Shown: positions 2,245 through 32,730 of the stretch, one piece after another
How the letters are laid out: the number at the start of each line of letters is the position of its first letter
How positions within the stretch are numbered: position 1 is the first letter of the stretch
DNA from: Candidatus Doudnabacteria bacterium RIFCSPHIGHO2_01_FULL_46_14
GTDB lineage: Bacteria > Patescibacteriota > Doudnabacteria > UBA920 > 2-01-FULL-46-14
DNA: 64,000 nt
NCBI GenBank assembly: GCA_001779925.1
Contig: MFEK01000016.1
Coordinates: 78,504-142,503 of the forward strand
Direction of reading: 5' to 3'
Made by a program: the position numbers and the translations under genes
Notes under the pieces: model-generated
Database searches by the model: none
Seen by the model: the letters and a program-made list of their open reading frames with translations, nothing else
What the model was told of the DNA's origin: nothing

Positions 2245-2256
2245 AAATCGAACTAC

Positions 2257-4591: not shown

Positions 4592-4677
4592 AAAATGTTT
4601 GATTGAAAGAGCTGGCATCGGCATTGTATGATCACGGATTTTTCTGATCTCCACGAACATTTTTATCAAATACCGGA

Positions 4678-5058
4678 TTGGGGAAATATTTGAAAAAGGG
4701 GTATAATATATATCTATGTTTTGGCTGTACCAGGGGCAAAGACAGGCACTGTCAAAACAAGTACATCCAAGAAAAGGACATGATCGAGGAACTCCTGAAA
4801 ATCCTTAATCAGATAGACTTAAGTGAACTTGGAACGCGGCAAAAGCTTGAGGAAGAAATCAACCGGTTCCATAAATTCCAAAATACGGTACTCAAATCCA
4901 AGGATTCGGCTGGACAGAAAACAAGCCACATTGATATCCGGACCTATGCCAAATATCTGCTCAAGGAAGGCAGTATCACTGAGAAGCGAGAACTGTTGGC
5001 GAACCTGAAAAGCAAACTGGTGTACAAAGATAAAACAATCACACTACTCCAACAATAA
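4678..5058 (+). pseudogene. Remnant of a large serine recombinase: only the C-terminal zinc beta-ribbon and coiled-coil segment remains
   Basis: YNIYLCFGCTRGKDRHCQNKY followed by a coiled coil matches the recombinase zinc-ribbon domain. There is no catalytic domain. The frame opens just after a stop at 4645 and starts with TTG, not ATG. Confidence 0.5.
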
Positions 5059-5069
5059 CCGCTAAACAA

Positions 5070-5097
5070 CAACACCGCTTTTTAAAGCGGTGTTGTT
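5070..5097 (+). terminator. Terminator hairpin
   Basis: aacaacaccgctttttaaagcggtgttgtttt. Confidence 0.55.
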
Positions 5098-5167
5098 TTG
5101 GTTGCCACTCGATCTTGCTACCAGCGCCACCCGAGGTACTCGGGTCTCGCTCGATAACAAAATGTCG

Positions 5168-5257
5168 TGGCGGAGAGGGTGGGATTCGAACCCACGAGAC
5201 CCGATGAAAGGTCACAGTTTTCGAGACTGTCGCCTTGAACCACTTGGCTACCTCTCC
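5168..5257 (-). tRNA. tRNA-Ser(CGA)
   Basis: Hand-folded. Acceptor GGAGAGG/CCTCTCC, anticodon loop CTCGAAA, long variable arm, CCA encoded. Length 90 nt. Confidence 0.8.
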
Positions 5258-5496
5258 ATCTAAACTTAGTCCTATCAGTTTTTTAAATGCTCCACCACCT
5301 TTATAGCCCTTATTTGAAATTCTCGTCGGTAAGCATCCTGCTCAGTGAAAAATGTTTCATAATGCACTCGAACCGCCGTATTTCCGAAAAAATTGTTTCT
5401 TGGGATTTCAAAAAACCTTTTGATTTGCTTGCAAATCTTCCCGCCGACGAGCTTCGCTCGGAGGCGGCGTCATCAAAAAATTTGCAAAATTTCACT

Positions 5497-5570
5497 TGGT
5501 CGGGGTGCTGGGAATTGAACCCAGTCTACACGCACCCGAAGCGTGCGTACTACCGGCATACTCCACCCCG
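5497..5570 (-). tRNA. tRNA-Pro(CGG)
   Basis: Acceptor CGGGGTG/CACCCCG, anticodon stem CACGC/GCGTG, loop TTCGGGT, T-loop TTCAATT, CCA encoded. Confidence 0.75.
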
Positions 5571-5599
5571 AATGTGCTTTTGAATTTACTATTTAGTTT

Positions 5600-5650
5600 T
5601 GCCCCCAGAGGGAATCGAACCCCTATCTTGTCCTTAGGACGGATCTGCTC
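5600..5650 (-). pseudogene. Partial tRNA-Arg copy: the 3' half only, with no matching 5' acceptor strand
   Basis: About 50 nt nearly identical to the 3' half of the adjacent tRNA-Arg, including the anticodon arm and T-arm. The 5' portion is unrelated sequence. Confidence 0.55.
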
Positions 5651-5671
5651 CCCGCCCGCCTGACTCGTCTA

Positions 5672-5743
5672 TGTCCCTGGAGGGAATCGAACCCCCATCT
5701 TATCCTTAGGACGGATCTGCTCTATCCATTGAGCTACAGAGAC
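5672..5743 (-). tRNA. tRNA-Arg(CCU)
   Basis: Acceptor GTCTCTG/CAGGGAC, anticodon loop GTCCTAA, T-loop TTCGATT. CCA is not encoded. Confidence 0.75.
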
Positions 5744-5821
5744 GTCAGGCGAGTCGGGCGGGTATCCGCTTGTCCGACCTGGATCGGACTCCGACATTGG
5801 TCGGAGAGCTACGGGGACATG

Positions 5822-5895
5822 TGGTGGACCCGAGGGGAATCGGACCCCTGACTGCTCCATGCCATGGAGCCGTGTTACCATTATACTACGGGCCC
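5822..5895 (-). tRNA. tRNA-Ala(GGC)
   Basis: Acceptor GGGCCCG with the G3:U70 alanine identity pair, anticodon loop ATGGCAT, CCA encoded. Confidence 0.8.
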
Positions 5896-5977
5896 TAATT
5901 AACTTTTCAGTTTATATATTGTAATGAAAATCGTGATTTATTTCAATGTTTCACATTGAGGCGTATATAATGAAACA

Positions 5978-6640
5978 GTGATCACCCCAACCTACACTAA
6001 AGAATTAGAATTACTCCCGAATTACCGCCTTATTGCCGGCGTTGATGAGGTGGGCCGCGGGCCGCTCGCTGGGCCCGTAGTGTCAGCGGTTGTAATTCTC
6101 AATCCTGCAGCGGTTGGAAAATACCGTAGCAAGACCAAATGGTGGAGCGCGGTTCGCGACAGTAAAACCGTGCCAGGGCACAGACGGCAATCTTTGGCGG
6201 AATTCATAAAAGAGAACGCTATTGATTATGCCGTCGGTCTTGCTACGCATCGGGAGATTGATGAACTCAATATTCATTTTGCCTCACTGCTCTCCATGAA
6301 GCGTGCAGTAGAGAATCTGAAAATCTCACCCGATATCGTGCTCATAGATGGACTTTACAAAATTCCACATTCCATATTCCAGATTCAAACTATCGTAAAT
6401 GGCGACGCAAAAATTTTATCTATCGCGGCTGCTTCCATTCTCGCCAAAGTTTATCGCGATGATCTCATGAAAAAATATTCCGGAGAATTCCCAAATTTTG
6501 GTTTTGAAAAACATAAAGGCTACAATACTCTATTTCATAGAAAGGCGATTATTGCGCACGGCGCTTGTCCCATCCACCGCATGAGTTTTCCTGCTCTGCA
6601 AACAGTGATTAGCAAAAGATTTGCAAATCTGCTAAAATAG
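5978..6640 (+). CDS. rnhB: Ribonuclease HII
   Basis: LIAGVDEVGRGPLAGPVV active-site motif. GTG start. Confidence 0.85.
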   Translation: MITPTYTKELELLPNYRLIAGVDEVGRGPLAGPVVSAVVILNPAAVGKYRSKTKWWSAVRDSKTVPGHRRQSLAEFIKENAIDYAVGLATHREIDELNIHFASLLSMKRAVENLKISPDIVLIDGLYKIPHSIFQIQTIVNGDAKILSIAAASILAKVYRDDLMKKYSGEFPNFGFEKHKGYNTLFHRKAIIAHGACPIHRMSFPALQTVISKRFANLLK

Positions 6641-11794: not shown

Positions 11795-12574
11795 TCACCT
11801 CAAACTGCTCCAGAGCTGGCGGAACCACATTACAAATGTGTCAACGATGGCTTGGTTTTCGATAATGATCCCCGAGGGATGACCGGTCATATCCAGAATA
11901 GCAATTTTATTCATCCAACATAATGTATCCGTGGGGAATTCTTTTTTCTCCTGCGGCCAGACTTTATGGAAAAAATTCTTTTGCTCATGCTTTTTTACCT
12001 GCTCGAGAAAATCCTTCAGCATAGGCGTTTCGCTGATGATTGCGTATTTGCGCATCTGCTCGTAGTAAATATGCTGATTATGTTCGATCCATCCGGGAAT
12101 CACAGTCTCCATCCGATCCGCGGAAAACACTACGTAAAAATTATACGGGCGTACCAACTTTGAAAGATCCTTGCGAATCTCCGCGTTGATGCTCTTAATC
12201 CCTTCGACCCCTTCAAAAAATCGCACCTTGGTTTTCTGCGGCATACTGCTTTGCAAAGCCTGGAACATTGGCGCAGCTTTTACCAAGTCCTTTTCTAGCC
12301 GCTGCATGTCCCTCTGTTTTCTTTCCACATAAGCTACGAGCCCGCCGTAATCTAAAGCCTGCACTTTTTTTATGCCATGCTTTTCTTCGAACTCTGCAAA
12401 AAGCCCTTTTTCTTTGAGTTGCTCGGCAATCTCATAAACATAAGTGCGGGCAACCCCCGCCTCTCTTGCGACCCGGCTAATCGGAGCGGCGCCGATTTTG
12501 AGCGCGCCTAAAAACACTTTGGTCTCATTCGTGCTCAAACCGATATCTTTCAATATCTTTTCAATTCTATCCAT
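11795..12574 (-). CDS. TrmB-family HTH transcriptional regulator (paralogue 2)
   Basis: IGLSTNETKVFLGALKIGAAPISRVAREAGVARTYVYEI winged HTH. Confidence 0.7.
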   Translation of the reverse strand: MDRIEKILKDIGLSTNETKVFLGALKIGAAPISRVAREAGVARTYVYEIAEQLKEKGLFAEFEEKHGIKKVQALDYGGLVAYVERKQRDMQRLEKDLVKAAPMFQALQSSMPQKTKVRFFEGVEGIKSINAEIRKDLSKLVRPYNFYVVFSADRMETVIPGWIEHNQHIYYEQMRKYAIISETPMLKDFLEQVKKHEQKNFFHKVWPQEKKEFPTDTLCWMNKIAILDMTGHPSGIIIENQAIVDTFVMWFRQLWSSLR

Positions 12575-14647: not shown

Positions 14648-14878
14648 CTATCTTCGCAGATTTCTTTGCGATCTTGGTTTGAAGTTCTCCATAAAGAGAA
14701 CTAAGGCCAGAATACTGAGCGCTACCACGAGTCCGGTTCTGACAATCGAGTCAAGCGCCGAACGACTGTCGTTCAAGCTGACTGCCGCGATTACTGCCAA
14801 AACCGCAAGAACAACTGCGAAGAAACAACCGGCGATGCGGTCGATTCTTCCGGGCAACCACACTACTTTTTTCATGTG
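14648..14878 (-). CDS. Small membrane protein, hypothetical
   Basis: Start refined to ATG 14876-78, which has an SD aaggagga. Two TM helices. Confidence 0.45.
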   Translation of the reverse strand, partial: HMKKVVWLPGRIDRIAGCFFAVVLAVLAVIAAVSLNDSRSALDSIVRTGLVVALSILALVLFMENFKPRSQRNLRR

Positions 14879-14967
14879 GGCTTCCTCCTTTGACTGCGCA
14901 GATGATAGCACAAAAACAGCCCTCTGTCTAGGGCTTGTTTACTTACAACTTATAACTCTACAACTTA

Positions 14968-15468
14968 CTACTTCTTCACGAGTCCCCACTCTTGCTTGGC
15001 GATTTCTTTATCGCCGGCAAGGAGTTTCACTATATCGGCTCGCGACACAATGCCGACGAGCTTGCCGTTATCAAGCACGGGCACCGGGTTGGCTTTTTTG
15101 TGCAAAAATGTTTCAGCGAGAGTCTCGAGCGTGTCGTCCGGTTTTGCAGTCATAACCTCTTCAGTCATAACCTCTTCAACCTTGGTCGCAGTGAGAACCT
15201 CAAGCTGTTTTTCAATCTCATCGCCGTTGGCGGGGTTGTCCAGATAAACGAAGCTCCCCAGTATGCCTAAAATTTTTGGGATATGGACAGGTTCTTCCAT
15301 TTTGACCAGGTCCTGCTCAGTCACAATTCCTATGAGTTGTTCGGCCTCATCCAAAACCGGCAAACCGGAAAGACCGTTAAGATACATAAGCCTTGCTGCT
15401 TCCTTGATCGAATCATAAGGCGTACAGAAGATTACGTTTTTGGTCATTATGTCTTTGACTGTTGTCAT
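14968..15468 (-). CDS. CBS-domain pair protein
   Basis: Two tandem CBS motifs. Confidence 0.8.
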   Translation of the reverse strand: MTTVKDIMTKNVIFCTPYDSIKEAARLMYLNGLSGLPVLDEAEQLIGIVTEQDLVKMEEPVHIPKILGILGSFVYLDNPANGDEIEKQLEVLTATKVEEVMTEEVMTAKPDDTLETLAETFLHKKANPVPVLDNGKLVGIVSRADIVKLLAGDKEIAKQEWGLVKK

Positions 15469-15539
15469 AGTTTTACGAATTACGAATTTTTACGAACTTA
15501 CGAATTCGTACATTCGTATCCATTCGTTATTCGTAAAGC
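15469..15539. repeat. TACGAAT-heptamer intercistronic repeat element, palindromic copy 1
   Basis: gttttacgaattacgaatttttacgaacttacgaattcgtacattcgtatccattcgttattcgtaaagc. Fills the entire gap between the nrnA stop and the CBS gene's start. Confidence 0.6.
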
Positions 15540-16514
15540 TTAAGTTATCTTCCACCCATTCTCTGTTTTCTCTATTGTCCCTTTAAATTTAAATCCTGCC
15601 GCCAGTTTGTGTCCTCCCCCGCCGAAGCTGCGTGCAATCTCGGAAACATCCACGCCTTTGTGAGGTTCGCTGCGTAGACTTCCCTTAATCTCAGAACCGC
15701 GCTGCTTTAAAAGCATGGAAAATTTCGCTTCGGGAATGGTGTTGAGGAGCTCTACTACCCCCTCGAGATCCTCCTCGGAAGCCTGAGCTTTTTCCAAATC
15801 CTCAGCTGTAACTACAGTATATACGACTCTGGCTTTCTCATCAAAACGGGCTTGGTCGAGTGCCATGGCCCAGACCTTCAGTTTCGGCAAATCCTTTTGC
15901 GAAGAGGTAAAACGCGAAACAAGATCGAGCCTTGCGCCTTTGCGCAAAAGCTCGGCAGCGATTTCCAGAGTCGCGGCCGTGACATTAGCGTGCCGGAAAC
16001 CGCCAGTATCCGTAAAGATCCCGGTAAGCAGACAAAGCGCCATGGCCTTGTCTATTTCCACCCCCCATTCTCCGAGCATCACGTACACGAGCTCGCAGTT
16101 GGCAGCCCGGGTTTCATCCCAGACATTTACTGTTCCAAACATTTGCGTATCGTGATGATGATCAATGTTCAAAATGGATTTTTGCCAATTGTTCAGCTCG
16201 GCAAATCCGGTGCGATCGAGCTTGCCGCAGCCCATGGTAAGGATCGCGTCGTAATTAGCAAAATCTACCGGCAGTTTGTCATACACATCGCTGTGACCCG
16301 GCAGAAAAAGTAAATTTTCCGGTACCCCGCCGTACGCCATACTCCAAACCTCTTTGCCCATCCCCTCCAAAGCTCGCGCAAGCGCAAGCACGCTTCCGAG
16401 GTCGTCCCCGTCAGTGTATTCATGGGAAATCAAAATAAAACGCTTGTTAGCGTTTACCAAATCATAGGCTTTCGTAAACTCGGTTTTTAATTCACTCTTA
16501 ATCTCAATCGCCAT
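15540..16514 (-). CDS. nrnA: DHH/DHHA1 phosphoesterase (NrnA-like oligoribonuclease / pAp phosphatase)
   Basis: DHH motifs SHEYTDGDD and NIDHHHD. DHHA1 motif GGGH. Confidence 0.8.
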   Translation of the reverse strand: MAIEIKSELKTEFTKAYDLVNANKRFILISHEYTDGDDLGSVLALARALEGMGKEVWSMAYGGVPENLLFLPGHSDVYDKLPVDFANYDAILTMGCGKLDRTGFAELNNWQKSILNIDHHHDTQMFGTVNVWDETRAANCELVYVMLGEWGVEIDKAMALCLLTGIFTDTGGFRHANVTAATLEIAAELLRKGARLDLVSRFTSSQKDLPKLKVWAMALDQARFDEKARVVYTVVTAEDLEKAQASEEDLEGVVELLNTIPEAKFSMLLKQRGSEIKGSLRSEPHKGVDVSEIARSFGGGGHKLAAGFKFKGTIEKTENGWKIT

Positions 16515-16839
16515 GCAATTTTTTTAAGACTTTGGAAATGTACTCGGCGTACTCGCCGGAAGAATCAGAGATAAAGGCAATGCGCGGCACTTTTTTCATT
16601 TCCAGCTTGTTATAGAGCACACCCTGGATTTCATAAATGTTTTTCTTCAAAATCTCCAGCACATCCTGCGGGTCCTGTCCGAGAGAAGAAAAAAAAATTT
16701 TCGCATGCTCCAAATCGCCGGAAACATCAACTGCGGTTACTGTAACAAGACCAGTGATGCCTTCCGGCTTATCTTCAACCAAGTGCTGGCTTATCAGCTG
16801 CTGGATTAATGAATTTACTTTCTCTTGCCGTGTAGACAT
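16504..16839 (-). CDS. rbfA: Ribosome-binding factor A
   Basis: RbfA pattern (KVNSLIQQLISQHL...GLVTVTAVDVSGDLEHAKIFFS) and position downstream of infB. Confidence 0.85.
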   Translation of the reverse strand: MSTRQEKVNSLIQQLISQHLVEDKPEGITGLVTVTAVDVSGDLEHAKIFFSSLGQDPQDVLEILKKNIYEIQGVLYNKLEMKKVPRIAFISDSSGEYAEYISKVLKKLHGD

Positions 16840-16913
16840 TCCCTACTAAATTACGAATAGTTACCAATTACGAATCCGGATTCGTAATTGGTATTGATTA
16901 GTAATTTGTAGGG
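16840..16913. repeat. TACGAAT-element copy 2, a long imperfect palindrome between infB and rbfA
   Basis: Contains ccaattacgaatccggattcgtaattgg and outer arms ccctac/gtaggg. Confidence 0.55.
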
Positions 16914-18842
16914 TTATGTGCCTTTTTTCCTCACCGTCTCGTCAAAAATTTCCAGCACATCTCCTTCTTTTACCGGTGTTTTAACCTTGATTTTCAGGCC
17001 GAACTCTTTACCCAGAGACACCTCACCGACTTCGATTTTATTTTGCTGAAGCTCTTCGATCTTGCCTTCGCCGGCCAATACCTTGTCCCTAAAAATTCTA
17101 AATTTTTTCTTATCCACGATTTTTCCATCGGCCACCTCGCCGCCAACAATCATGACATCTTTTTCCGTGCGGAACACCGCCTTAATTTTGGCTTTCCCAA
17201 GAATAGTCTCCACTACAACCATGGGCATCATGACCAGAAGCGCCTGAGTGACATCCTCGATCAGCTCATAAATAATGTCATACATATCAACCGTAACATT
17301 TTTCTGCTTGGCCAACTTGGCCGCCCCGGCTGTCTGGCGCGTATGAAATCCGATGATGATGCTTTGCGTATTTTCCGCAAGCGCGATATCCGATTCGTTG
17401 ATCTCCGCAACTTTTTGATCAACTATATTCAGCTTTACATCCTCAGTATCGAGTTTCCCCAGCGCGTCCGTAATCGCGCCTAAACTGCCGGCCACATCCG
17501 CCCGTAAAATTAATTTCAATTCTTTCGTGTTTGAATCAGCTTTCAGCTGGGGCCGGCTCATCAGCCTTTTTACGCGCTCCAATTTCTGCAAATTCAGCGC
17601 CTCATGCTTAGCCTCATCAAGCGAACCCGTGACTTTCAAAATATCGCCGACCTCCGGCACGCCAGAAATTCCGGAAATGAGCACCGGGTAGGATGGTCCG
17701 GCTTCTTTAACTTTTTTAACAAGAGCGTCTTCCATAGCGCGGATTTTCCCATACGCAGTTCCCACGATCACAGTATCGCCGATCTTCAACGTCCCGTTCT
17801 GCACCAGTACAGTCGCAACTGCGCCGTGCGAGCGCGAAAGATGTGATTCGATGACAGTACCAAGAGTCTGCCCTTCCGGATTGGCTTTCAGCTCCTCCAC
17901 GTCAGCCACAATCAAAACTGTTTCCAGCAATTTATCAATCCCCATGCCGGTTTTGGCAGACAAAGGAACAGCCGGGGTATTGCCGCCCCATTCCTCAATA
18001 GTTACGCCAAGCTGGGACAAATCCGCTTTGACGCGGTCTATATTGGCCTCGGGTTTATCAACTTTGTTGATGGCCACAATCATCGGAGTCTTGGTAAGCT
18101 TGGCGCGGTTGATGACCTCAAGGGTTTGCGGCTTCACACTGTCGTCAGCCGCCACCACCAAAACAATAATGTCCGTAACGTTTGCGCCGCGGGCGCGCAT
18201 GGCCGCAAACGCCTCATGACCCGGGGTGTCGAGAAAAGTAATTTTGCGGCCATTAGATTCAACCTGATAAGCACCGATGTGCTGAGTGATCGCGCCCGAT
18301 TCCGTGGCCACAACATTAGTTTTGCGAATCGTATCAAGAAGCGTGGTTTTGCCGTGGTCAACATGGCCCATGACCGCCACAATCGGGGGCCGCTCTTTCA
18401 GGTTGGCAGGATCTTCTTTGGCCACCAAATCGAAAACATACCCGAGCGCCATTTTTGCAGGATCAGAGTTCGCTTTTTCCAGTTCTACCTCTACTCCAAA
18501 CTCGGAAGCTATGATGCCCGCAGTATCAGCATCTATCTCTTCATTAATAGTTGCCATAACCCCGTTCATAATTAATTTCTTTATAACTGCCGTAACCGGC
18601 TGTTTGAGCTTGGCAGAAAAATCCTTGACCGAAATAAGCTGGGGAATAATGATGCTGGTAATTTTCTCATCCATGACCACAGGCGCCGTGCTCTGTCCCG
18701 TCAGTTTTCTCATAATCTCGCGCGCCAGACTATTGTCAACTTTGCGCGCCTTCAGAGACACGCGAAAACCCGCCTCGCGCATTTTATTGCGCAGGTCCTG
18801 GACTGACATATTTAATTGCTGGGAAAGTGTAGAAAGATCCAT
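16914..18842 (-). CDS. infB: Translation initiation factor IF-2
   Basis: GTPase motifs VAVMGHVDHGKTTLLD and DTPGH. 642 aa. Confidence 0.95.
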   Translation of the reverse strand: MDLSTLSQQLNMSVQDLRNKMREAGFRVSLKARKVDNSLAREIMRKLTGQSTAPVVMDEKITSIIIPQLISVKDFSAKLKQPVTAVIKKLIMNGVMATINEEIDADTAGIIASEFGVEVELEKANSDPAKMALGYVFDLVAKEDPANLKERPPIVAVMGHVDHGKTTLLDTIRKTNVVATESGAITQHIGAYQVESNGRKITFLDTPGHEAFAAMRARGANVTDIIVLVVAADDSVKPQTLEVINRAKLTKTPMIVAINKVDKPEANIDRVKADLSQLGVTIEEWGGNTPAVPLSAKTGMGIDKLLETVLIVADVEELKANPEGQTLGTVIESHLSRSHGAVATVLVQNGTLKIGDTVIVGTAYGKIRAMEDALVKKVKEAGPSYPVLISGISGVPEVGDILKVTGSLDEAKHEALNLQKLERVKRLMSRPQLKADSNTKELKLILRADVAGSLGAITDALGKLDTEDVKLNIVDQKVAEINESDIALAENTQSIIIGFHTRQTAGAAKLAKQKNVTVDMYDIIYELIEDVTQALLVMMPMVVVETILGKAKIKAVFRTEKDVMIVGGEVADGKIVDKKKFRIFRDKVLAGEGKIEELQQNKIEVGEVSLGKEFGLKIKVKTPVKEGDVLEIFDETVRKKGT

Positions 18843-19754: not shown

Positions 19755-20507
19755 TCAACTCTTGATAACTTTTTCGTAAGGCACGCCTGCCATCCACGCC
19801 ATATCAAACAAAATCCGCAGGGACTGGCTCACCTCCCGGCTTTCGATCTGCACTGCAAATACTGCCGGCTTGAAAGAGAAAAAAGCCACATGATTTCCGT
19901 AAATCGCGCTGTCAGTTAAAAATTCCGGAAAACTCTTTGGTGCAAAACGGCTTTGATAATATTCATGCTGTTTTATCCAGCTGACGTACTCGATGTCGGC
20001 TGGCGTCTGGGTAAGAATTTCTCTGACTTTTGTTTGTTTGGTAATCACCCGCTCCCGCAAAAGCTTGGGCATGTCCGGGAACATGGCGAACACATCTCGG
20101 ATCGTGGAAAAAAAATCAATCGCGGGCGAGGAAAATATTTTATCATAGACCTGCCTCAAACCTTGCTTGCCTTCATAAAGCTGCACTTGGGGTTTTTCTT
20201 TTTTCGCATTGTAAACCGCGAGCAGATTGGGCATGAATCTTTTGAGGAGCTCTTCCTTGCGATTAATCTCTGTCAAAATCAGCTCCGGTGATTCGGCAGT
20301 GTATAGAGTTTTCCTGGCACGAGGCACCAGACTCACTAATCCTCGCGTTTGCAAATCATCTAAGACCAAATAAGTTGTGGGTCGTTTGGTTCCGGCTTTT
20401 TTGGCAATGGATTCTACCGAAGCCACGCCCAGCTCCAAAGCGGCCAGGTAAACGCTGGCTTCTTTGGCATGTAGCCCCAGTTTTTCTAAAGTGTCTGTCA
20501 GTTCCAT
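19755..20507 (-). CDS. TrmB-family HTH transcriptional regulator (paralogue 3)
   Basis: LGLHAKEASVYLAALELGVASVESIAKKAGTKRPTTYLVLDDL. Confidence 0.7.
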   Translation of the reverse strand: MELTDTLEKLGLHAKEASVYLAALELGVASVESIAKKAGTKRPTTYLVLDDLQTRGLVSLVPRARKTLYTAESPELILTEINRKEELLKRFMPNLLAVYNAKKEKPQVQLYEGKQGLRQVYDKIFSSPAIDFFSTIRDVFAMFPDMPKLLRERVITKQTKVREILTQTPADIEYVSWIKQHEYYQSRFAPKSFPEFLTDSAIYGNHVAFFSFKPAVFAVQIESREVSQSLRILFDMAWMAGVPYEKVIKS

Positions 20508-20520
20508 ATAATCGCATTGT

Positions 20521-20541
20521 TCCCCTCCTCGTGAGGAGGGG
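20521..20541. repeat. GC-rich palindrome cccctcctcgtgaggagggg of the CCCCTCC/GGAGGGG family
   Basis: Perfect hairpin. It is followed by a second hairpin, gaagcaatctcgggtgggattgcttc. Confidence 0.6.
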
Positions 20542-20816
20542 TTAGGGGAGGTTATTTGTCATTGCGAGGGTATTCCCGAAGCAATCTCGGGTGGGATTGC
20601 TTCGCCGACTACGGCTCGCAAAGACAGCGTAGCGAAGAATTTATATTCTGTCAATTTTTCTGACAAATTGCAAATGAACAACAAATTTTGCCTTAAATAA
20701 GGCATTATTTTCACTAATTTCTATCTAAAACTCTAGACAAATGTGTCAAAATTTGCTAATATACATCGTTACGCTGGAAATGTCTCTAGCCTAACATCAA
20801 AGCCAAAAGGAGGGTT

Positions 20817-20976
20817 TATGCCAAAGGTCTTAAAAATTGAAGGAAATGTAGCTGACAACGGAACGCTTCTAACCGGGGTAATAATGGTTCACTATGACCC
20901 GGAAGACTTGCAAAAATTCATGGATGATTGGCGCAAGGAAATGGAGGAGCGGAAGAAAAAAAGGAAAGAGCCTTAG
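20817..20976 (+). CDS. Small hypothetical protein (53 aa)
   Basis: Strong SD aaaggaggg 5 nt upstream of ATG 20817. The ORF-track start at 20743 has no RBS. Confidence 0.4.
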
Positions 20977-21130
20977 CACTCCCTCCCCGTCTGGCCAAAA
21001 TAGACGGGAATTTTTTCCAGACAATATTCAACGCAATGAATGTTGTTTGAAAGGAATTATAACAATATCAAGGGGGGTCTTATCTTCCAGTAAGTCCTGA
21101 CCGAAAGGCAGGCATGGATTGGAGGAAATC

Positions 21131-21472
21131 ATGAAAACCATTAACGAGAAAGTGGAATATCTTCGCACCGTCCTGATCGCTGTCTTCGGCCAAGAGGGGG
21201 ATAAAAGTATGTGCTTGTCTTGTCCCCCGGGTTGCTTGCAATCTTACCGGCCATGCCCCGATGTGTCAGACCTTCGAGCGATTCTTGCTCGAATGGAAGC
21301 TGACCGCGTGGCGGGAGAAGCGTTTAAGCGGAGATACCGAACTCCGATCTATGAGGCGCTCCTCAAGATCGGATTCAATCCGCAGGCTGCAGAGAGACTC
21401 ACCGACAGGACTAGCCGCGACTGTATACGCGGTGATGAGTTCCTGGAATTGGTGAGGAGCAATCTCTCGTAG
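21131..21472 (+). CDS. Hypothetical protein (113 aa), Cys-containing
   Basis: SD ggagg 5 nt upstream of ATG 21131. Confidence 0.5.
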   Translation: MKTINEKVEYLRTVLIAVFGQEGDKSMCLSCPPGCLQSYRPCPDVSDLRAILARMEADRVAGEAFKRRYRTPIYEALLKIGFNPQAAERLTDRTSRDCIRGDEFLELVRSNLS

Positions 21473-21591
21473 CCCAAACCCTTTCTCCGCCCGTGATTTG
21501 GCTTGCGACAATTCACGGGAATTTTTTCCAGATAAGTATCGCATGGGGCGATGGTTGTCTGAAAAGAATTTGAAAACCTTTTGGAGGAATT

Positions 21592-22194
21592 ATGCAACGG
21601 ACTTGGAAGAATTTCTTTGGGTTAGCAACTGCAATGATAGTGGTGATGATTATCGCCAGCAAATGCGATGCGCACGGACAAGGACTAGCAGAGATTCGCG
21701 GGACGAATACGAAATACCGTTACATTGATGCCGCCTACAGTTTCAAGAACAATATCATGCTTGATGGATTCTATCTTGGCGTGCCTGGCGAAAATCAAAT
21801 CCATGCCGGTGCCGGATACAATATCAAGCCCAGCGAACATTTTACAATCACCCCGGCTGTCTACATGACACGTTCAAAGGAAGGTGAAACTGGAATCAAA
21901 GCCGCTTTGCTCGTGAATGGAAGCCTGGGCCGCTGGAAAACTAATGCTTTTCTTGGGAAACACAAATCCCTAAAAAGTTTACCATCTTACACTTTTTTGG
22001 ACGCTCTCGAACTGGCACGCAGCGTGAAACAATTCGAGATCGGTGTCTCAACAGGATTCGTTCACATGGAGCGCAACTGGAACCCACTCGTCGGCCCGGT
22101 AGTAAAATTCAACGACAAATCAGGCGCATGGAGCTTATCCGTACGCAGCGGCAGTGAAACGGAAATCCGGCTCACGCGAACTTTCAACTTCTGA
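21592..22194 (+). CDS. Secreted protein, hypothetical
   Basis: N-terminal signal peptide. SD ttggagg. Ends ...RLTRTFNF with a C-terminal Phe, which is beta-barrel-like. Confidence 0.5.
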   Translation: MQRTWKNFFGLATAMIVVMIIASKCDAHGQGLAEIRGTNTKYRYIDAAYSFKNNIMLDGFYLGVPGENQIHAGAGYNIKPSEHFTITPAVYMTRSKEGETGIKAALLVNGSLGRWKTNAFLGKHKSLKSLPSYTFLDALELARSVKQFEIGVSTGFVHMERNWNPLVGPVVKFNDKSGAWSLSVRSGSETEIRLTRTFNF

Positions 22195-22206
22195 CAAGGA
22201 GAGTTT

Positions 22207-22926
22207 ATGGACAAATGGACACGACTTGACGACCGAATGCTGGAACGGCGATTCTTGACTGAAAAAAATCCCGCCCTCGTCAACATCGAACGGCAAAGTT
22301 TATCCGCGGCCGAGGAGCAAGGAACATGGATAGTCCGACAATATTGTTCCCTGGTCCGGATGATCATCGAATACCTGGGACTAGGGATGAGCCTCATCCC
22401 GATACATAGGGTGCAAACAGAACTTGCTCGAAATATCGGCGAAGAGCAAGGCTCGCGCACGGGTGGCGTGCCGCACCGGGAACTGCTAGCCAAGATCCTG
22501 CGCGATGAGCTGAACATGGAATGCTTTTCGCCCTGGTCACAGGCCACCCTGCGTTTTCACCTGGCTCTGCTGGGACAGTTTCAAACACAAGCTAAAAACC
22601 CGGTACATATCGCGGGAATGATCTACGCCCTCGAGGCCAGCGCGTGTCCGGAGCTTCTCGTGGTAGCCAGAATCATCAACAGTTTTGCCGGCTATCAGGT
22701 GGTCAATCTCGACACGGTTCAAGATTTCAATCGAAGTCGTGAGATCAAAACTCTGGAGGACTTCATCGCCGTCCATGTCATTGATTTCGAGCTCGGCCAC
22801 AAGCTCGGGCTCTGCCAAACCCTCGACAGATTTGCCTCCACTGACTGGGAGGCGTTCGAGCTGGGATTTGAATTCGTGCTGGACACCATGGCCGAGTGGT
22901 GGGAGGCGCTGAGCAATGGGGGATGA
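22207..22926 (+). CDS. Hypothetical cytoplasmic protein
   Basis: SD acaaggagag. No motif confidently recognised. Confidence 0.5.
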   Translation: MDKWTRLDDRMLERRFLTEKNPALVNIERQSLSAAEEQGTWIVRQYCSLVRMIIEYLGLGMSLIPIHRVQTELARNIGEEQGSRTGGVPHRELLAKILRDELNMECFSPWSQATLRFHLALLGQFQTQAKNPVHIAGMIYALEASACPELLVVARIINSFAGYQVVNLDTVQDFNRSREIKTLEDFIAVHVIDFELGHKLGLCQTLDRFASTDWEAFELGFEFVLDTMAEWWEALSNGG

Positions 22927-22942
22927 ATTTCGTACCAATTCA

Positions 22943-22987
22943 AAACCCGGGCGAGAGCAATCTCATCGCCCGGTTTTTTATTTTGCT
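22943..22987 (+). terminator. Terminator module D, copy 1
   Basis: cccgggcgagagcaatctcatcgcccggttttttatttt. Nearly identical to 24676-24717. Confidence 0.65.
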
Positions 22988-23002
22988 AATTATCCACAGA
23001 GA

Positions 23003-23095
23003 CTCACTTACTTCACAGCCGTGAATGAAGTGAGTACTTGTTAAATTATGCTGAAGTACCCCACAGACTTCACGATCGTGAAGTCTGTGGGGTAC
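23003..23095. repeat. Two tandem palindromes of the TTCACGATCGTGAA-core family. The second is a perfect 40 bp palindrome.
   Basis: 23003-23034 is ctcacttacttcacagccgtgaatgaagtgag. 23056-23095 is gtaccccacagacttcacgatcgtgaagtctgtggggtac. Confidence 0.65.
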
Positions 23096-23096
23096 T

Positions 23097-23885
23097 TTAT
23101 TTTTCTTCTCCGGTGGACTCCCAAATAAAATAAAAAAGCGAGCGCATGGTCGCGGCGATCTCTTTTGAACGGATGATGAGTCCGATTGGCTCGCTATCTT
23201 TGCGCCATAAAGCAAAAGATGCATTGTCGCCATAAATGTAGCAGTCGAGTGGCAACGGAAATTTCTTTGAATCCAAAGTTTTTACTCGGCGCAAAAAGGC
23301 AGGATCAGTTTTTAAATTCATCTCCGCTGATCTTGCGACGCCGCTCAGCAAAATATCAATTGCAATTCCGTATTTAATTCTTCTGGGAATATAATAATTA
23401 CTCGCATACTCATCAATCGCAGGATGGATGTTTTCTAAACCTACAAAATTGAGCGTCGGCTTGCGCTGATGGAGATTGTCCAAATAGATTTTCTTTACGC
23501 CTTCTACGCCTTCATAAAAAACAATTTTCGGTTTCACAGAAGCAGTTGCTAGTAACATCCGCAGCTCTGGCAGACGTTTCTGTATTAGCTCCAGTTCAGC
23601 TGCTTTTTTCTCTACATAGCTTTCCGGATCTTCTGCCACTAGAAAGCGTCTTTTGCCAATCATGGTTTCTGAGAGAAGGCCTTTGCTGAATAAATTTGGT
23701 AGGAGTTTATAGAGTGTTGGCCTTTTTACCCCTGATTTATCTGCCAAGTGTTTAGGCAATGACCTGCCCAATTCCAAGGCTGATAAATAAATGGCTGATT
23801 CGGCCTTGGAAAGTCCTAGATTTTCTAATGTTTCTTCAATATGCATATTAAAGTGTTGCAGTTTATGACACTTTATATCATGCAT
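23097..23885 (-). CDS. TrmB-family HTH transcriptional regulator (paralogue 4)
   Basis: LGLSKAESAIYLSALELGRSLPKHLADKSGVKRPTLYKLL. Confidence 0.7.
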   Translation of the reverse strand: MHDIKCHKLQHFNMHIEETLENLGLSKAESAIYLSALELGRSLPKHLADKSGVKRPTLYKLLPNLFSKGLLSETMIGKRRFLVAEDPESYVEKKAAELELIQKRLPELRMLLATASVKPKIVFYEGVEGVKKIYLDNLHQRKPTLNFVGLENIHPAIDEYASNYYIPRRIKYGIAIDILLSGVARSAEMNLKTDPAFLRRVKTLDSKKFPLPLDCYIYGDNASFALWRKDSEPIGLIIRSKEIAATMRSLFYFIWESTGEEK

Positions 23886-23961
23886 TATTTACTTTATCTC
23901 GTCAACAATATATGATCCAAAGTCACAATAGACACAAATTGTGACAGAAATTGGAGGAACG

Positions 23962-24120
23962 ATGACAGTTGAAGAAGGAATGTCCCGTGCCATTGAGATT
24001 GCAAAACAGCTTGCTGTGCAAATTGGTTGGAAACGACAAGGTGAAACCAGTGCATATTACGCACTAACTGTTGCAATTCTCGCCGCAGCAATCTTCAGCC
24101 GCATGGGAGGAGAAGAATGA
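23962..24120 (+). CDS. Small hypothetical protein (52 aa), translationally coupled (ATGA overlap) to the next gene
   Basis: SD ttggagg before ATG 23962. Hydrophobic C-terminus. Confidence 0.4.
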   Translation: MTVEEGMSRAIEIAKQLAVQIGWKRQGETSAYYALTVAILAAAIFSRMGGEE

Positions 24121-24668
24121 TCGAACAATTTCGAGTTACAAAACATAACGGGGAGGACCCTTACTATCCCGTCCGCTTCACAGCAGTGCTTCCCGAAAAA
24201 AAGCCTCTCAAGGCCCTGGTTAAGGAAGTCGTGAAAGCCATCTGTAATTGGAAAGCTCCCTGGGGTAAGGTCTTCGAGATTTACTGCGACAATCCCGCGT
24301 ACATTCCTTACAACTATGTTAAAACTGATGAAAAACGCGGAGTGGCGGCGTTTGTCCTTCTTCAAGAAAGACCTCTCATTGCAATCCTTCAAGGACCTGC
24401 AAGAGCATGGGATGAAGCTATCTACGCAATACGTCTGGAAGGTGACGTTGTCCGAGGCTGGCGCATTGAACACGGCTCTGGTTACCACGGACCTGATGGC
24501 GATGCATTCGGCAACCACTACCGATTCGTTCTGACAGAACTCAAAGCCGGAGTGCTGCGCTACACTGCAATGACCAAAACAGATCGGAGGAAAAACGATC
24601 AAGGTGTATGGACTTCGAAAATTCAGGATACTCCAAAAGAAATAGACCTACTCGCGGAGATACCCTAA
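24117..24668 (+). CDS. Hypothetical protein (183 aa)
   Basis: SD gggaggag. No recognised motif. Confidence 0.5.
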   Translation: MIEQFRVTKHNGEDPYYPVRFTAVLPEKKPLKALVKEVVKAICNWKAPWGKVFEIYCDNPAYIPYNYVKTDEKRGVAAFVLLQERPLIAILQGPARAWDEAIYAIRLEGDVVRGWRIEHGSGYHGPDGDAFGNHYRFVLTELKAGVLRYTAMTKTDRRKNDQGVWTSKIQDTPKEIDLLAEIP

Positions 24669-24675
24669 AAATTAA

Positions 24676-24717
24676 ACCGAGGCGAGAGCAATCTCATCGC
24701 CCGGTTTTTTATTTGCC
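24676..24717 (+). terminator. Terminator module D, copy 2
   Basis: aaccgaggcgagagcaatctcatcgcccggttttttatttgcc. Confidence 0.65.
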
Positions 24718-24767
24718 TAAATGAACCACCCCCGCAGCAAGCTGACGGGGTATCATAAGCCTACGAT

Positions 24768-24806
24768 TCACCCCTCCCTAACCCTCCCCATCAAGGGGAG
24801 GGAAAA
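24768..24806. repeat. Family-A GC-rich hairpin element, copy A1
   Basis: tcacccctccctaaccctccccatcaaggggagggaaa. It is 38/39 nt identical to 58651-58690 and close to 47147-47186. Confidence 0.7.
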
Positions 24807-24858
24807 AGCAGGGAACCGCGGCAAGCCGCGGGGAATTAGACCCGGGGAGATTAAATAG

Positions 24859-24897
24859 TGACCCATAGGATTCACGATCGTGAAGTCTGTGAGTCAT
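24859..24897. repeat. TTCACGATCGTGAA-core palindrome with chimeric arms
   Basis: tgacccataggattcacgatcgtgaagtctgtgagtca. The left arm resembles the 29235 copy and the right arm the 23056 copy. Confidence 0.6.
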
Positions 24898-24945
24898 TTT
24901 ACGCTATGACCTCCCCCTAGCCCCTCCTCAATGAGGAGGGGAATT

Positions 24946-25809
24946 TCAAAACTGCCGGGATTTGCCGACGATCATTTTGATTTTTTGTTTCGCGACCTTT
25001 ATTATTGCGGGGGCTTTGGTGTAGACTTGCCCCTCAATAGAGAGCGGTAGTTTCCGCGGGCCAAGGACTTCGATCTGTTTGGCGTGCATGATGGTAGCGC
25101 CGGGCACATTGTCGAGACAGCCGGTAGCCAGCTCACGGCGGTAGCGGATAATTTGCCCGCTTGCAAGTTTGTTCAGTAATAAAATATCGAGAAGTTTGTC
25201 AGTGGGATCCCCGAGTTTGACCTTGCACCCGGCGTTATTGCGGCAATTGATAATCTGCGCGCCCAACACCTCTGAGGAAACCCGAAACGAATCATCAAGC
25301 TCAAGCTGTACCTCGAAAGGTGCTAGCCTCATGAATGTGCGCACGCTTGATAGGCCCATAAACCCGGGCTCGATCTGGGAAAACTGATTTTCTCCAAGCT
25401 CCACCTTGGATAAAAAATAATGCTCATTAATCTCACCCAAATCCAGGCTCGCTACCAAGCGACCTGCCAAAGTCTTTACTGAAAGCTCGATGTCAGGCGT
25501 GATCCCGAAAATCTGCCCTAACCTGGAATCTGAATCAAGCGAAATAAAGCCCACAGTAATGTCAGCGTGATGGCGCACCAAGGCATTGATAGCGCGGTTG
25601 AGCGTACTATCCGAGCCTACCACAATGATAGTTTTGGCCTCAAGGCCAATGGCTTGATCCACCAAAAGCTCCACGGTTCGGATCGAGGTCACCCGATAAG
25701 TCTCCCCTTCTATATGGTGTTCCGCGATCAGGTTCAGGAGGCGTCCTTGGATGCGCTCAAAATATTTGACTTCTTTGTCCTTTCCCGGATCAAAGATATA
25801 AAAATACAT
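24946..25809 (-). CDS. Diacylglycerol/lipid kinase catalytic-domain protein (YegS/BmrU-like)
   Basis: IIVVGSDSTLNRAINAL...GFISLDSD matches the DAGK_cat pattern. Confidence 0.65.
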   Translation of the reverse strand: MYFYIFDPGKDKEVKYFERIQGRLLNLIAEHHIEGETYRVTSIRTVELLVDQAIGLEAKTIIVVGSDSTLNRAINALVRHHADITVGFISLDSDSRLGQIFGITPDIELSVKTLAGRLVASLDLGEINEHYFLSKVELGENQFSQIEPGFMGLSSVRTFMRLAPFEVQLELDDSFRVSSEVLGAQIINCRNNAGCKVKLGDPTDKLLDILLLNKLASGQIIRYRRELATGCLDNVPGATIMHAKQIEVLGPRKLPLSIEGQVYTKAPAIIKVAKQKIKMIVGKSRQF

Positions 25810-25895
25810 GGCTTTACGAATTACTAATCTTTACGAATATACGAATCCGAATTCACATTCGTAAATTCGTACCAATTCGTTATTCGTAAAACTTT
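25810..25895. repeat. TACGAAT-element copy 3, palindromic
   Basis: gttttacgaataacgaattggtacgaatttacgaatg... read in the minus orientation. Fills the gap between the bactofilin stop and the kinase start. Confidence 0.6.
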
Positions 25896-26300
25896 TTATT
25901 CTTCTTCCTCTGGCAGAACGTCACTAAGACTTTCGCCGCCTTCCGGCATGCTCATCGTGCAGGAGCCGGTAAACCGCGCTCCCTCAGCAATAGACAGACG
26001 CCCGCAGGAAATATTTCCCGAGACTTTCCCTGTTTCCTGGATGAGCAGACTGTCCTTGATTTTAATCTCGCCTTTAACCTGGCCTGCGATAACCGCGTTG
26101 CCAGAATCAATGTCGGCCTCAATGTTGGCGGCCGCTCCGACATAAAGATTTTTTGTAGTTTTTATTTTTCCGCTGACCGCTCCCTCAACGCGGATATCCC
26201 CTTCGCTGACCAAATCGCCTTCGATTTTTACTGAAGCGCCGACCACTGTTTCCGGGGCGCCGCCGTCATTGTAGTCTTCTCTTTTCGACATAATACCCAT
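25896..26300 (-). CDS. Bactofilin
   Basis: Repetitive beta-helix pattern GDLVSEGDIRVEGAVSGKIKT...GEIKIKDSLLI. Confidence 0.8.
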   Translation of the reverse strand: MGIMSKREDYNDGGAPETVVGASVKIEGDLVSEGDIRVEGAVSGKIKTTKNLYVGAAANIEADIDSGNAVIAGQVKGEIKIKDSLLIQETGKVSGNISCGRLSIAEGARFTGSCTMSMPEGGESLSDVLPEEEE

Positions 26301-26360
26301 TATTAATAATTTAAAATTAAAAAGTCAAAATGGAAAATTACGGTGTAAAATTGTTAATTG

Positions 26361-26858
26361 TCATTCTACGCTTTGATCTTTCAATTTTGCATTATTAATA
26401 GCTAGTTTTTCCTCCTCAGTCAGATGATACTCGGATTTGCCGTTTGCAATGGATTTGCCATATATCCTCGTTCCTTCCCTGGCATGGAGTGAGCTTATTA
26501 CTATACCATTGTCATTCCCATCCAGTAAAGCGAGGGTAAAACTCATGTTGCCGCCTGCTTCCGCAAACGGATTGAATCGCACGAGCCCGGTTTTTTGAAC
26601 ATTAAATCGATTACTCTCCACCAACTCCTCGAGAATCTTGCCCAGCTCTTTGAGATTTTTGTTGTGAGTGGCCAGGGTTTTTTTATGCTTAAGCACGATC
26701 TCCTCGATTGACGGCACTTCTTCACCGGCTACCAGCTGGCTGTGCTGCATGCCGAAATCACGCAAACGCAAAAATAGCCAAATCAATAACAACACATTGA
26801 TTATTGATACTATTCCGACAGCCAAAATGAAGTATGGATTATTTAAAAAATCTATCAT
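26361..26858 (-). CDS. Membrane-anchored protein, possibly DUF4446-like
   Basis: N-terminal TM helix. C-terminal VRFNPFAEAGGNMSFTLALLDGNDNGIV is reminiscent of DUF4446. Confidence 0.4.
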   Translation of the reverse strand: MIDFLNNPYFILAVGIVSIINVLLLIWLFLRLRDFGMQHSQLVAGEEVPSIEEIVLKHKKTLATHNKNLKELGKILEELVESNRFNVQKTGLVRFNPFAEAGGNMSFTLALLDGNDNGIVISSLHAREGTRIYGKSIANGKSEYHLTEEEKLAINNAKLKDQSVE

Positions 26859-26893
26859 ATAATAACCGAGTCCTTAACCTTAATTTCCCTAAT

Positions 26894-27073
26894 TATACTC
26901 ACATGTCAGATAATACCCAAATAGATCCGGATTTTCAGAAAGATTACGACCACATCAGAGCTGATGTCAAAAAGGTCGTGATAAATAACATCCTGTTCGT
27001 GGGCTTGCTCGTGGCCATATATTTCGCCAATCAGCGATTCGGGTTTCTCAGCAGACTGGAGAATTTTTTTTAA
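26894..27073 (+). CDS. Small membrane protein, hypothetical
   Basis: ATG 26894. One TM helix. No clear SD. Confidence 0.3.
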   Translation, partial: YTHMSDNTQIDPDFQKDYDHIRADVKKVVINNILFVGLLVAIYFANQRFGFLSRLENFF

Positions 27074-32728: not shown

Positions 32729-32730
32729 AA

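Follow-up and report, generated by a model that had tools for sequence, protein, structure and literature searches.

What kind of element fills the space between two co-directional genes almost to the last base, and does so at five separate places in one stretch of a small genome? The question is raised by 64,000 nucleotides (nt) of DNA (hereafter, the window) from Candidatus Doudnabacteria bacterium RIFCSPHIGHO2_01_FULL_46_14 (contig MFEK01000016.1 of assembly GCA_001779925.1, positions 78,504 to 142,503), in which an initial annotation, made from the sequence alone, had pointed out a repeated TACGAAT heptamer between genes. The genomes of the candidate phyla radiation (CPR, or Patescibacteria), to which this bacterium belongs, are about 1 Mb in size and are usually described as streamlined. 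The TACGAAT element, as it is called here, is about 70-90 nt long and made almost wholly of its own repeats; in the window this one repeat family fills five gaps between co-directional genes, leaving a residual gap of 0-4 nt, at a density of roughly one copy per 13 kb. The explanation that we favour, with a probability of about one half, is that the element is a dispersed, co-transcribed non-coding repeat of CPR that is tolerated by operons and resembles REPINs (hairpin-forming doublets made up of repetitive extragenic palindromic (REP) units) or miniature inverted-repeat transposable elements (MITEs). It is suggested by the occurrence of inverted doublets together with singlets, the self-complementary ends, the many copies in many genomes, the turnover at orthologous sites, the genome-specific variants and the tolerance of copies in rRNA and essential operons.

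All five loci were found again where they had first been placed when the sequence was re-read, and the listing of open reading frames (ORFs) together with Pfam, from which the gene identities of the window were taken, confirmed that at each of them the element runs from the upstream stop to the next co-directional start:

15469-15539, minus strand: full element of two inverted arms between the stop (15540) of a DHH/DHHA1 (nrnA-like) gene and the ATG (15468) of a CBS gene; on the gene strand TAA GCTT-TACGAAT AACGAAT GGA TACGAAT G TACGAAT, then TCGTAAG TTCGTA AAA ATTCGTA ATTCGTA AAAC T ATG; RNA fold -28.7 kcal/mol, z -6.5.
16840-16913, minus strand: variant full element that separates the IF2 stop (16914) from the RbfA ATG (16839), with CCCTAC...GTAGGG termini and degenerate heptamers (TACTAAT, TACCAAT); RNA fold -36.0 kcal/mol, z -8.6.
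25810-25895, minus strand: full element between the stop of a bactofilin gene (25896) and the ATG of a DAGK-like kinase gene (25809); TAA AAA GTTT-TACGAAT AACGAAT TGG TACGAAT T TACGAAT GTGAATTCGG ATTCGTA T ATTCGTA AAG ATTAGTA ATTCGTA AAGC C ATG; RNA fold -37.6 kcal/mol, z -8.1.
43027-43062, plus strand: single arm in sense orientation between an MBL-fold gene and a 71-aa ORF upstream of gyrA; GTTT-TACGAAT AACGAAT TAG TACGAAT A TACGAAT(G), the first G being the last base of the MBL-fold TAG stop and the last (fourth) heptamer supplying the ATG (43061) of the 71-aa ORF; RNA z 0.1.
57533-57568, plus strand: single arm in sense orientation between the PBP1A gene and a Wzy_C O-antigen-ligase-like gene; GTTT-TACGAAT AACGAAT AAT TACGAAT G TACGAAT, the first G being the last base of the PBP1A TAG stop, the Wzy_C ATG (57559) lying inside the third heptamer and the fourth heptamer being translated (M-Y-E-F); RNA z -0.1.

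The identities first given to the flanking genes were borne out by Pfam, the order at the first locus being DHH/DHHA1 (nrnA-like) and then CBS. The ATGs of the CBS and RbfA genes are considered real starts because the Pfam domains of both products begin at residue 4. As had been noted, the downstream ATG is contained in two of the copies (43061 and 57559); for the Wzy_C gene, the next in-frame start (TTG, codon 27) would remove an N-terminal hydrophobic stretch. The gaps were also said to lack a Shine-Dalgarno sequence, and indeed the motifs GGAG, GAGG and AGGA are absent upstream of the four downstream genes scored and, by reading, from the gap of the 43061 ORF, which at 71 aa falls below the 100-aa cut of the scoring. 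Motifs of this type precede approximately 30% of the other genes of the window, a contrast with the five element genes that is not significant alone.

Architecture of the TACGAAT element

The 18-mer GTTTTACGAATAACGAAT occurs exactly at 25875-25892 (minus strand), 43027-43044 and 57533-57550 (both plus strand), with one mismatch at 15470 (plus) and 15522 (minus), and with three mismatches at 25811 (plus), giving six matches in the window against 0.14 expected from shuffles. It had been assigned to all five loci; this holds for four of them, and 16840-16913 carries the variant palindrome instead. The heptamer TACGAAT itself was counted 24 times against 6.3 expected, with 21 of the 24 within the five loci. 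An arm, read from the outside inwards, consists of a terminus of 3-4 nt followed by TACGAAT-(A/T)ACGAAT-N3-TACGAAT-N-TACGAAT, about 35 nt in all, in which the heptamer starts are spaced at a fixed 7, 10 and 8 nt. A complete element is formed by two inverted arms around a loop of 0 to ~100 nt, and single arms are also found; the window contains three doublets (71, 74 and 86 nt) and two single arms.

The three doublets are imperfect palindromes, as had been claimed, and the RNA folding that the initial annotation proposed as a check returned, for the energies listed above, z values of -6.5 to -8.6 relative to shuffled sequence. The predicted structure is a hairpin interrupted by internal loops, 3x3 at the N3 and 1x1 at the N positions, and 1-3 nt separate its stem base from the stop on one side and the AUG on the other. 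The two single arms fold no better than shuffled sequence and are thus unstructured as RNA.

Strong predicted hairpins at three loci might indicate a transcription terminator or attenuator between the genes, the latter being one of the roles put forward at first. We regard this as highly improbable: the stems are AU-rich with internal loops, no T-run follows any of the elements, two copies have no hairpin, and other copies are located between ribosomal-protein genes that are normally co-transcribed. A scan of positions 14800-17100 called no terminator at 15469-15539 or 16840-16913, the same scan having called a canonical one at 14918-14935, just downstream of the CBS gene. There is likewise no support for a sigma-70 promoter within the arm. 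Within the same 14800-17100 region no promoter-like site was found on the gene (minus) strand in either element, the sole 9/12 call overlapping the second of them (16833-16861) belongs to the opposite strand, and heptamers and promoter hexamers are a poor match.

The constraint acting on the element is confined to the heptamers and the termini. Partner-arm heptamers, which were not selected by the search pattern, show 95% identity to the consensus, variation being found at position 4, where G is replaced by A or T, and at position 7, where A or C stands for T; spacers compared between both arms of an element show 21% identity, as random sequence does. The terminal triplets, which border the outer heptamers on the outside, differ from element to element (CCC/GGG, CTC/GAG, ATC/GAT, GTC/GAC, TGC/GCA and others), and within an element they are complementary in 34 of 58 cases against 17.8 expected (p<1e-4). 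Bases 4-5 further out are not complementary, so that the stop of complementarity after three bases defines the edges of the element. The stems of 27 oriented palindromes comprise 705 Watson-Crick, 5 G-U and 11 A-C pairs on the sense strand; since G-U pairs are not in excess over A-C, the pairing of the heptamers is explained by the conservation of their sequence and not by selection for an RNA helix.

The fixed architecture, the free spacers and the co-varying termini also show that the element is not plain AT-rich low-complexity sequence, the alternative that the initial annotation itself had named. Another explanation, that of a simple repeat without a defined unit generated by slippage and in-situ expansion of gaps, in the manner of the short tandemly repeated repetitive (STRR) sequences, might draw on other short gaps of the window that are 7-nt periodic with different motifs (26301, 33640, 43277, 48252 and 52166), on tandem WACGAAT runs in other phyla, and on a chance match in Calothrix (L103; L numbers are our handles for the genomes and contigs compared), where an ACTGACC-type heptamer array directly follows a TACGAAT-AACGAAT stretch. 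This array resembles the cyanobacterial STRR repeats. We consider slippage very unlikely, and it is largely refuted by architecture, spacers and termini: the arm has a fixed H-H-N3-H-N-H arrangement (H, heptamer) with at most two contiguous heptamers, slippage would have copied the spacers too although these are unrelated, and the arms form inverted pairs whose ends are defined and co-vary. In addition, the same 28 specified bases of the arm recur in at least 120 unrelated contexts, as described below.

Distribution, placement and turnover

The 28-base arm pattern was found in at least 120 metagenome stretches, the matches listed giving 134 unique contexts, and had no matches in viral contigs. 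A scan of 596 Gb of genome contigs with the 16-mer TTTACGAATAACGAAT revealed the same architecture in genomes of Yonathbacteria (L071), Saccharibacteria (L039) and Patescibacteria (L003), the 120 matches listed being mostly chance occurrences or unrelated heptamer runs. Among the metagenome matches listed, the commonest form is (TAA or CAT-AA)CCC-TACGAATTACGAAT-N3-TACGAAT-N-TACGAAT. The metagenome loci include 31 canonical doublets with a span of 66-171 nt, and solo arms are common. Most metagenome arms end in C-TACGAAT / ATTCGTA-G (C at position -1 in 81%), many copies having the form CTAC...GTAG; the main type of the window ends in GYTT-TACGAAT / ATTCGTA-AARC.

One subfamily has a 3' arm that is broken up by GTAG followed by a GC-rich stem (GCCGAAAGCG...CGCTTTCGG), the loop holding two heptamers. 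The stem is represented by six compensatory variants, an ATG follows after 1-3 nt, and the whole resembles a nested REP unit (L131, L156, L163, L183, L190, L203, L218, L227, L232, L233, L243 and L250).

Repeats of heptamers with the core ACGAA are perhaps not restricted to CPR. Intergenic WACGAAT-like runs (AACGAAT, TACGAGT, AACGTTT) are present in metagenome-assembled genomes (MAGs) labelled Bacteroidales, Ignavibacteria, Manganitrophaceae (55-58% GC) and Calditrichia (L011, L058, L084, L089, L109, L120 and L038/L107/L115). A MAG labelled Bacteroidetes (FW215_bin.19, L052, the label being unchecked) carries at 90-160 a canonical arm whose GTAAA terminus overlaps the next ATG (ATTCGTAAATG), and a separate GACAGTA-type heptamer run lies beside this arm.

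A positional bias relative to stops and starts, on which the initial annotation had rested its case, is pronounced. Of the junctions of the window that were originally tight (no more than 5 nt), 5 of 14 are occupied, against 0 of 70 others (hypergeometric p ~6.5e-5), and in the metagenomes a called gene boundary is no more than 12 nt away from 53% of outer arm ends but from 8% of random intergenic positions. Measured in the metagenomes from the first base of the outermost heptamer to the gene, the gap is most often 3-5 nt at stops and 4-10 nt at starts. Palindromes of the metagenome loci with genes adjoining both sides stand between co-directional genes in 22 cases, divergent genes in one and convergent genes in none. 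The starts adjoining arms are ATG in 74 of 76 cases, with T at position -1 in 68% next to elements against 54% in the background. The adjoining stops are TAA or TAG in 29 of 31, TGA accounting for 2 of 31 against 26% in the background (binomial p ~0.006). Most solo arms have their outer end 4-10 nt ahead of an ATG (...ATTCGTAATTCGTA-GGGnn-ATG). Some of them take up a stop-start junction, and others, which closely follow sigma-70-like motifs, look like 5' leaders (L179, L227).

Copies are also tolerated in transcripts of essential genes. In L135, elements are located between the genes of ribosomal proteins L14 and L24, upstream of that of L16 and downstream of that of S8. In L133, a complete palindrome (4475-4585) is inserted in the apical loop of a helix of the 23S rRNA (2183-5990, minus strand), at positions ~1213-1219 of the Rfam LSU model according to the alignment to that model. 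Short intervening sequences of RNase III type have been reported at this type of 23S helix-loop site in CPR (PMC11270868). The L133 insertion is flanked by GGGAAUUC stem halves, and further heptamer arms are found ~330 nt upstream of the 23S 5' end. The presence of the same arm in so many unrelated stretches, one of them within 23S rRNA, speaks against a signal specific to the operons of the window.

The orthologous junctions of four relatives (L127, L128, L129 and L130; IF2 identity 88-71%, gene order as in the window) point in the same direction; by its IF2 homologues, the window itself falls beside Candidatus Doudnabacteria. The IF2-RbfA junction, of 74 nt in the window, measures 1 nt in L127 (TAA C ATG), is replaced by a gene overlap (GTGA) in L130, and holds diverged elements of 85 nt in L128 and 84 nt in L129, that of L128 having TATTCGTAATTTAGTAG (17-mer) in common with the copy at 16840-16913. 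At the DHH-CBS junction (71 nt in the window, not covered in L127) the genes overlap in L130 (ATGA), and there are 83 nt of TTTCAAT-type repeats in L128 and an 83-nt TACGAA(A/T) palindrome in L129. The bactofilin-kinase junction, of 86 nt in the window, comprises 21 nt with an AAGGA motif of its own in L128 and an 82-nt TACGAAA palindrome in L129. The TACGAAA variant is specific to the L129 genome, where it occupies all three junctions, which is what an evolving repeat population would give. The protein termini are constant across the relatives (WKIT-stop in the DHH protein, M-T-x-V-K-D in the CBS protein); junctions that are empty or hold other repeats next to unchanged termini show that the element is dispensable at a given junction. 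In the course of time it is gained, lost or replaced, with each genome having its own heptamer variant, and it is not a conserved gene-specific signal.

At the bactofilin-kinase junction, AGCTA cores at 7-8 nt spacing occur in L127 (171-209, 39 nt) and L130 (3195-3257, 63 nt), so that this junction is held by unrelated periodic repeats in different genomes. An apparent insertion in L126 proved to be a scaffold gap with Ns.

Mobility and host function

If the TACGAAT element is a REPIN- or MITE-like repeat, its heptamers would be recognised by a trans-acting protein, most likely a transposase or recombinase, and the family would spread and turn over within genomes; such recognition would account for the conserved heptamers, the free spacers and the self-complementary termini. 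Single arms would be remnants of complete elements, and surviving copies would accumulate at harmless sites, such as zero-length stop-start junctions, positions just before starts and the 23S helix loop. The element would be transcribed with its operon, the paired form folding into an interrupted hairpin of ~30 bp whose stem base would bring the stop and the next AUG to within a few nt of each other. Lacking a Shine-Dalgarno sequence, the downstream gene would probably be translated by terminating and re-initiating ribosomes or by S1-assisted initiation on the AU-rich leader; a gene of an S1-domain protein is present in the window. We infer mobility, the enzyme, co-transcription and this mode of translation from the features described above, of which the anatomy, the distribution, the turnover, the pattern of constraint and the predicted fold are established by the analysis. 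The translational coupling or re-initiation proposed in the initial annotation is plausible as a consequence of the element, not as a demonstrated reason for its existence, and the regulatory roles suggested there are only partly supported.

Several observations weigh against a mobile repeat. The near-identical strains L121-L126 (99.9-100% identity over the loci) display no insertion polymorphism, and mobility is derived from between-species comparisons only. None of the 67 ORFs of the window carries a transposase domain, and in ~1 Mb of element-bearing loci, where the searches for Y1 transposases and parent elements covered genome fragments, only two IS200-like Y1 genes were found, which have their own GC-rich hairpins and no flanking heptamers. 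Between paired arms at distances of 0.25-6 kb there are ordinary genes (ribosomal proteins, RpoA, YebC) and no transposase-like ORF. Direct target-site duplications of 2-4 nt are not in excess over permutations (p 0.25, 0.38 and 0.09), and no recent copy-paste pair was seen among the arms of the window and of contig L227, whose spacers all differ. Solo arms upstream of starts are of the ATTCGTA type in ~27 cases against ~6 in the other orientation, a bias that pure decay does not predict. Untargeted insertion followed by selection would hardly by itself place all five copies in junctions of zero length, and in-place selection by the host would likewise agree with heptamers that are conserved next to spacers that are saturated.

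Some particular routes of spreading were also considered. A Y1 enzyme, or REP-associated tyrosine transposase (RAYT), found no support as the mobiliser in the genome fragments covered, where only the two unrelated IS200-like genes turned up. Insertion at a TA target site might be suggested by the depletion of TGA at stops, but T at position -1 is already at 54% in the background, there is no direct duplication, and such insertion leaves the conserved WKIT-stop terminus of the DHH protein unexplained. An origin from integron attC sites, DNA uptake sequences or CRISPR-like arrays was set aside given mismatched core sites, the absence of the heptamers from coding DNA and the housekeeping nature of the flanks.

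A possible, more tentatively held explanation is that the element is a host cis-acting element of polycistronic mRNAs, an intercistronic cassette serving either as an RNase III-type processing or stability site, or as a stem that juxtaposes stop and start for Shine-Dalgarno-independent re-initiation, single arms acting as AU-rich leaders. This would agree with the exact position of the element, its ends lying 0-4 nt from stop and ATG in the window and showing gap peaks in the metagenomes, with the near-exclusive use of ATG at adjoining starts, with the orientation bias of solo arms at starts and the position of several as apparent 5' leaders, and with downstream genes devoid of the Shine-Dalgarno sequence seen in ~30% of other window genes. 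It would also fit the copies in essential, highly expressed operons and in the RNase III-type 23S site (PMC11270868), the co-varying terminal stem, the compensatory changes in the nested stem of one subfamily and, as said above, the in-place conservation of the heptamers. However, close relatives have an empty but working junction at the same place, which shows that the element can be dispensed with; G-U is not favoured over A-C in the stems, spacers never turn complementary, both heptamer orientations occur before ATGs, with the solo arms of the window opposite to most metagenome ones, and the absence of a Shine-Dalgarno sequence is not statistically distinctive. A host element may have been domesticated from a mobile repeat, and the two explanations are not exclusive and can both hold.

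A bolder scheme, which we find rather doubtful, would make the arms a CPR-wide signal for a heptamer-recognising factor acting on the transcript or on single-stranded DNA. Such a factor would cut polycistronic RNA and 23S rRNA at the hairpins, would define cistron boundaries and might load ribosomes on AUGs without a Shine-Dalgarno sequence located 1-7 nt from the end of the element, the whole being an alternative way for ultra-small genomes to punctuate operons and initiate translation, and one that copies itself into stop-start junctions.

It is unlikely that the heptamers are arrayed as 7-bp DNA sites to which a host protein binds, for instance a nucleoid protein or a global repressor. Heptad operators of ribbon-helix-helix proteins and the 7-N3-7 repeats of CtsR type provide precedents. 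The constraint does act on heptamer sequence and not on pairing, spacer length is fixed with its sequence free, the arms cover the -40 to -5 region of many genes, and TrmB-like paralogues, with six helix-turn-helix (HTH) genes of this family in the window, are one candidate binder. But most copies are inside operons, where no promoter is expected, the sites turn over between relatives, one copy is within 23S rRNA, and the co-varying terminal triplet is unexpected for a double-stranded operator.

Whichever explanation holds, a structured repeat sits in the tightest places of the genome: junctions of coupled genes, starts, ribosomal-protein genes and 23S rRNA. If mobile, it would represent a small replicator with unusual modular ends and no known enzyme, and a possible source of the short 23S intervening sequences of CPR. 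If functional, it would bear on the expression of genes that lack a Shine-Dalgarno sequence and follow a hairpin of 70-90 nt, and would provide a testable model of re-initiation or RNA processing in an almost uncultured phylum. As a practical use, the annotation of CPR genomes can take the elements as exact markers of gene boundaries and correct its calls of start codons by them.

Other repeats of the window and comparison with known systems

Gaps with a 7-nt period and other motifs separate further co-directional genes of the window (14912-14967, 26301-26360, 33640-33705, 48252-48280 and 52166-52206). Their motifs include TAAGTTG three times before a terminator, AAAATnn, CTTATAA CAGATAA CTGATAA CGTATAA after a terminator, and CTCAnnn. 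Identity at lag 7 is 0.46-0.62 in four periodic gaps against 0.20-0.36 at other lags; the periodicity of 14912-14967 was read by eye, this gap not being among those above the cut of 0.45. Intergenic DNA of the window as a whole shows no lag-7 periodicity (0.283 against ~0.275), which is thus confined to particular gaps. A second family, built on TCAAAAT heptamers, has two copies with the common tail ACTTTACATTTTT: one (43247-43343) begins at the 3' end of the 71-aa ORF and extends into the gap that precedes gyrA, and the other (51275-51439) fills the 165-nt gap directly after dnaA (49919-51274). The region of rnpA, yidC, jag and dnaA may hold the replication origin.

A family of GC-rich hairpins, CCCTCY-N3-9-RGAGGG, is represented nine times against 0.04 expected (8413, 20523, 24782, 24922, 34407, 37526, 37646, 47162 and 58665); three are near-identical (CCCTCCCCATCAAGGGGAGGG, the third differing by one base), and three of the nine (34407, 47162 and 58665, the last within the Wzy_C gene) are in called ORFs. 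The 64 kb encode six TrmB-family HTH proteins of ~250 aa (e.g. 11795-12574, 19755-20507 and 23097-23885), several of them beside element-bearing operons, a density of paralogues unusual for a small genome. One LAGLIDADG_3-domain protein and one 23S_rRNA_IVP-family protein are encoded as well (ORFs within 19758-38946 and 39194-62687), the latter in a window that has no rRNA gene.

Among known systems, cyanobacterial STRR sequences form long uninterrupted tandem heptamer arrays in intergenic and intra-operon positions and are not known to have a function. The TACGAAT element shares with them the 7-nt unit and the intergenic and intra-operon location. It differs in having four heptamers at the fixed 7/10/8 spacing, no more than two of them contiguous, and in its inverted pairs and defined termini. 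An excess of heptamers in bacteria is noted in one study (PMC4692102).

The copy in L133 is comparable to 23S intervening sequences, among them the short ones reported in CPR (PMC11270868), in that an extended hairpin takes the place of the apical loop of a 23S helix, and RNase III may be expected to cleave it. In the literature searched, no paper was found linking such intervening sequences to a genome-wide family of intercistronic repeats. Coupling of termination and re-initiation, and initiation regions bridged by a hairpin, are known, for example, from gene 38 of phage T4. The TACGAAT element might be analogous to these, as the predicted stem brings the upstream stop, and with it whatever directly precedes that stop, to within a few nt of a downstream AUG that has no Shine-Dalgarno sequence of its own; two copies have no stem, and the analogy is one of consequence only.

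Bacterial MITEs that are transcribed with their operons, such as ERIC/IRU, Correia/NEMIS, RUP and BOX, are dispersed, intergenic imperfect palindromes with terminal inverted repeats that form RNA hairpins; some of them are located next to start codons or are RNase III substrates, and their presence or absence differs between related genomes. The TACGAAT element is similar to MITEs in bearing terminal inverted repeats on a short, non-coding, multicopy unit and in having filled and empty sites between species-level relatives. In contrast to them, it lacks direct target-site duplications and, in the genome fragments covered, a parent insertion sequence, its arm is modular, with heptamers and free spacers, and it consists nearly entirely of repeat. 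Bacterial MITEs are treated in two reviews (PMC2229807, PMC3184786).

The similarity to REPINs and to REP singlets with RAYT is seen in short, non-coding, extragenic sequences in many copies, and in an inverted pair able to fold as a hairpin in single-stranded DNA or mRNA, the pair being the replicative unit in REPINs (PMC3116915). Single units occur in both, those of REPINs having been interpreted as decayed remnants (PMC3116915), and neither shows target-site duplications. GTAG, which is conserved at the end of REP units, is found at many metagenome copy ends, but the main type of the window ends in ATTCGTA-AARC; in one subfamily GTAG accompanies a co-varying GC-rich hairpin. On the other hand, a REP unit is a small palindrome, whereas the TACGAAT arm is composed of four direct heptamers, solo arms folding like shuffled sequence; no RAYT or Y1 gene is linked to the repeats in the loci examined, the hosts are CPR and not Proteobacteria or cyanobacteria, and the copies lie in zero-length junctions or against starts, REPINs being reported as randomly distributed in extragenic space (PMC3116915). 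An Rfam scan of the whole window at a permissive E-value assigned no family, giving only sub-threshold matches of a microRNA hairpin model on two elements, and a literature search for the 14-mers and for CPR repeats returned no description of such repeats. The TACGAAT element seems, then, to represent a hitherto undescribed family, which belongs with the palindromic intergenic repeats in kind and stands apart from them by its unusual modular arm.

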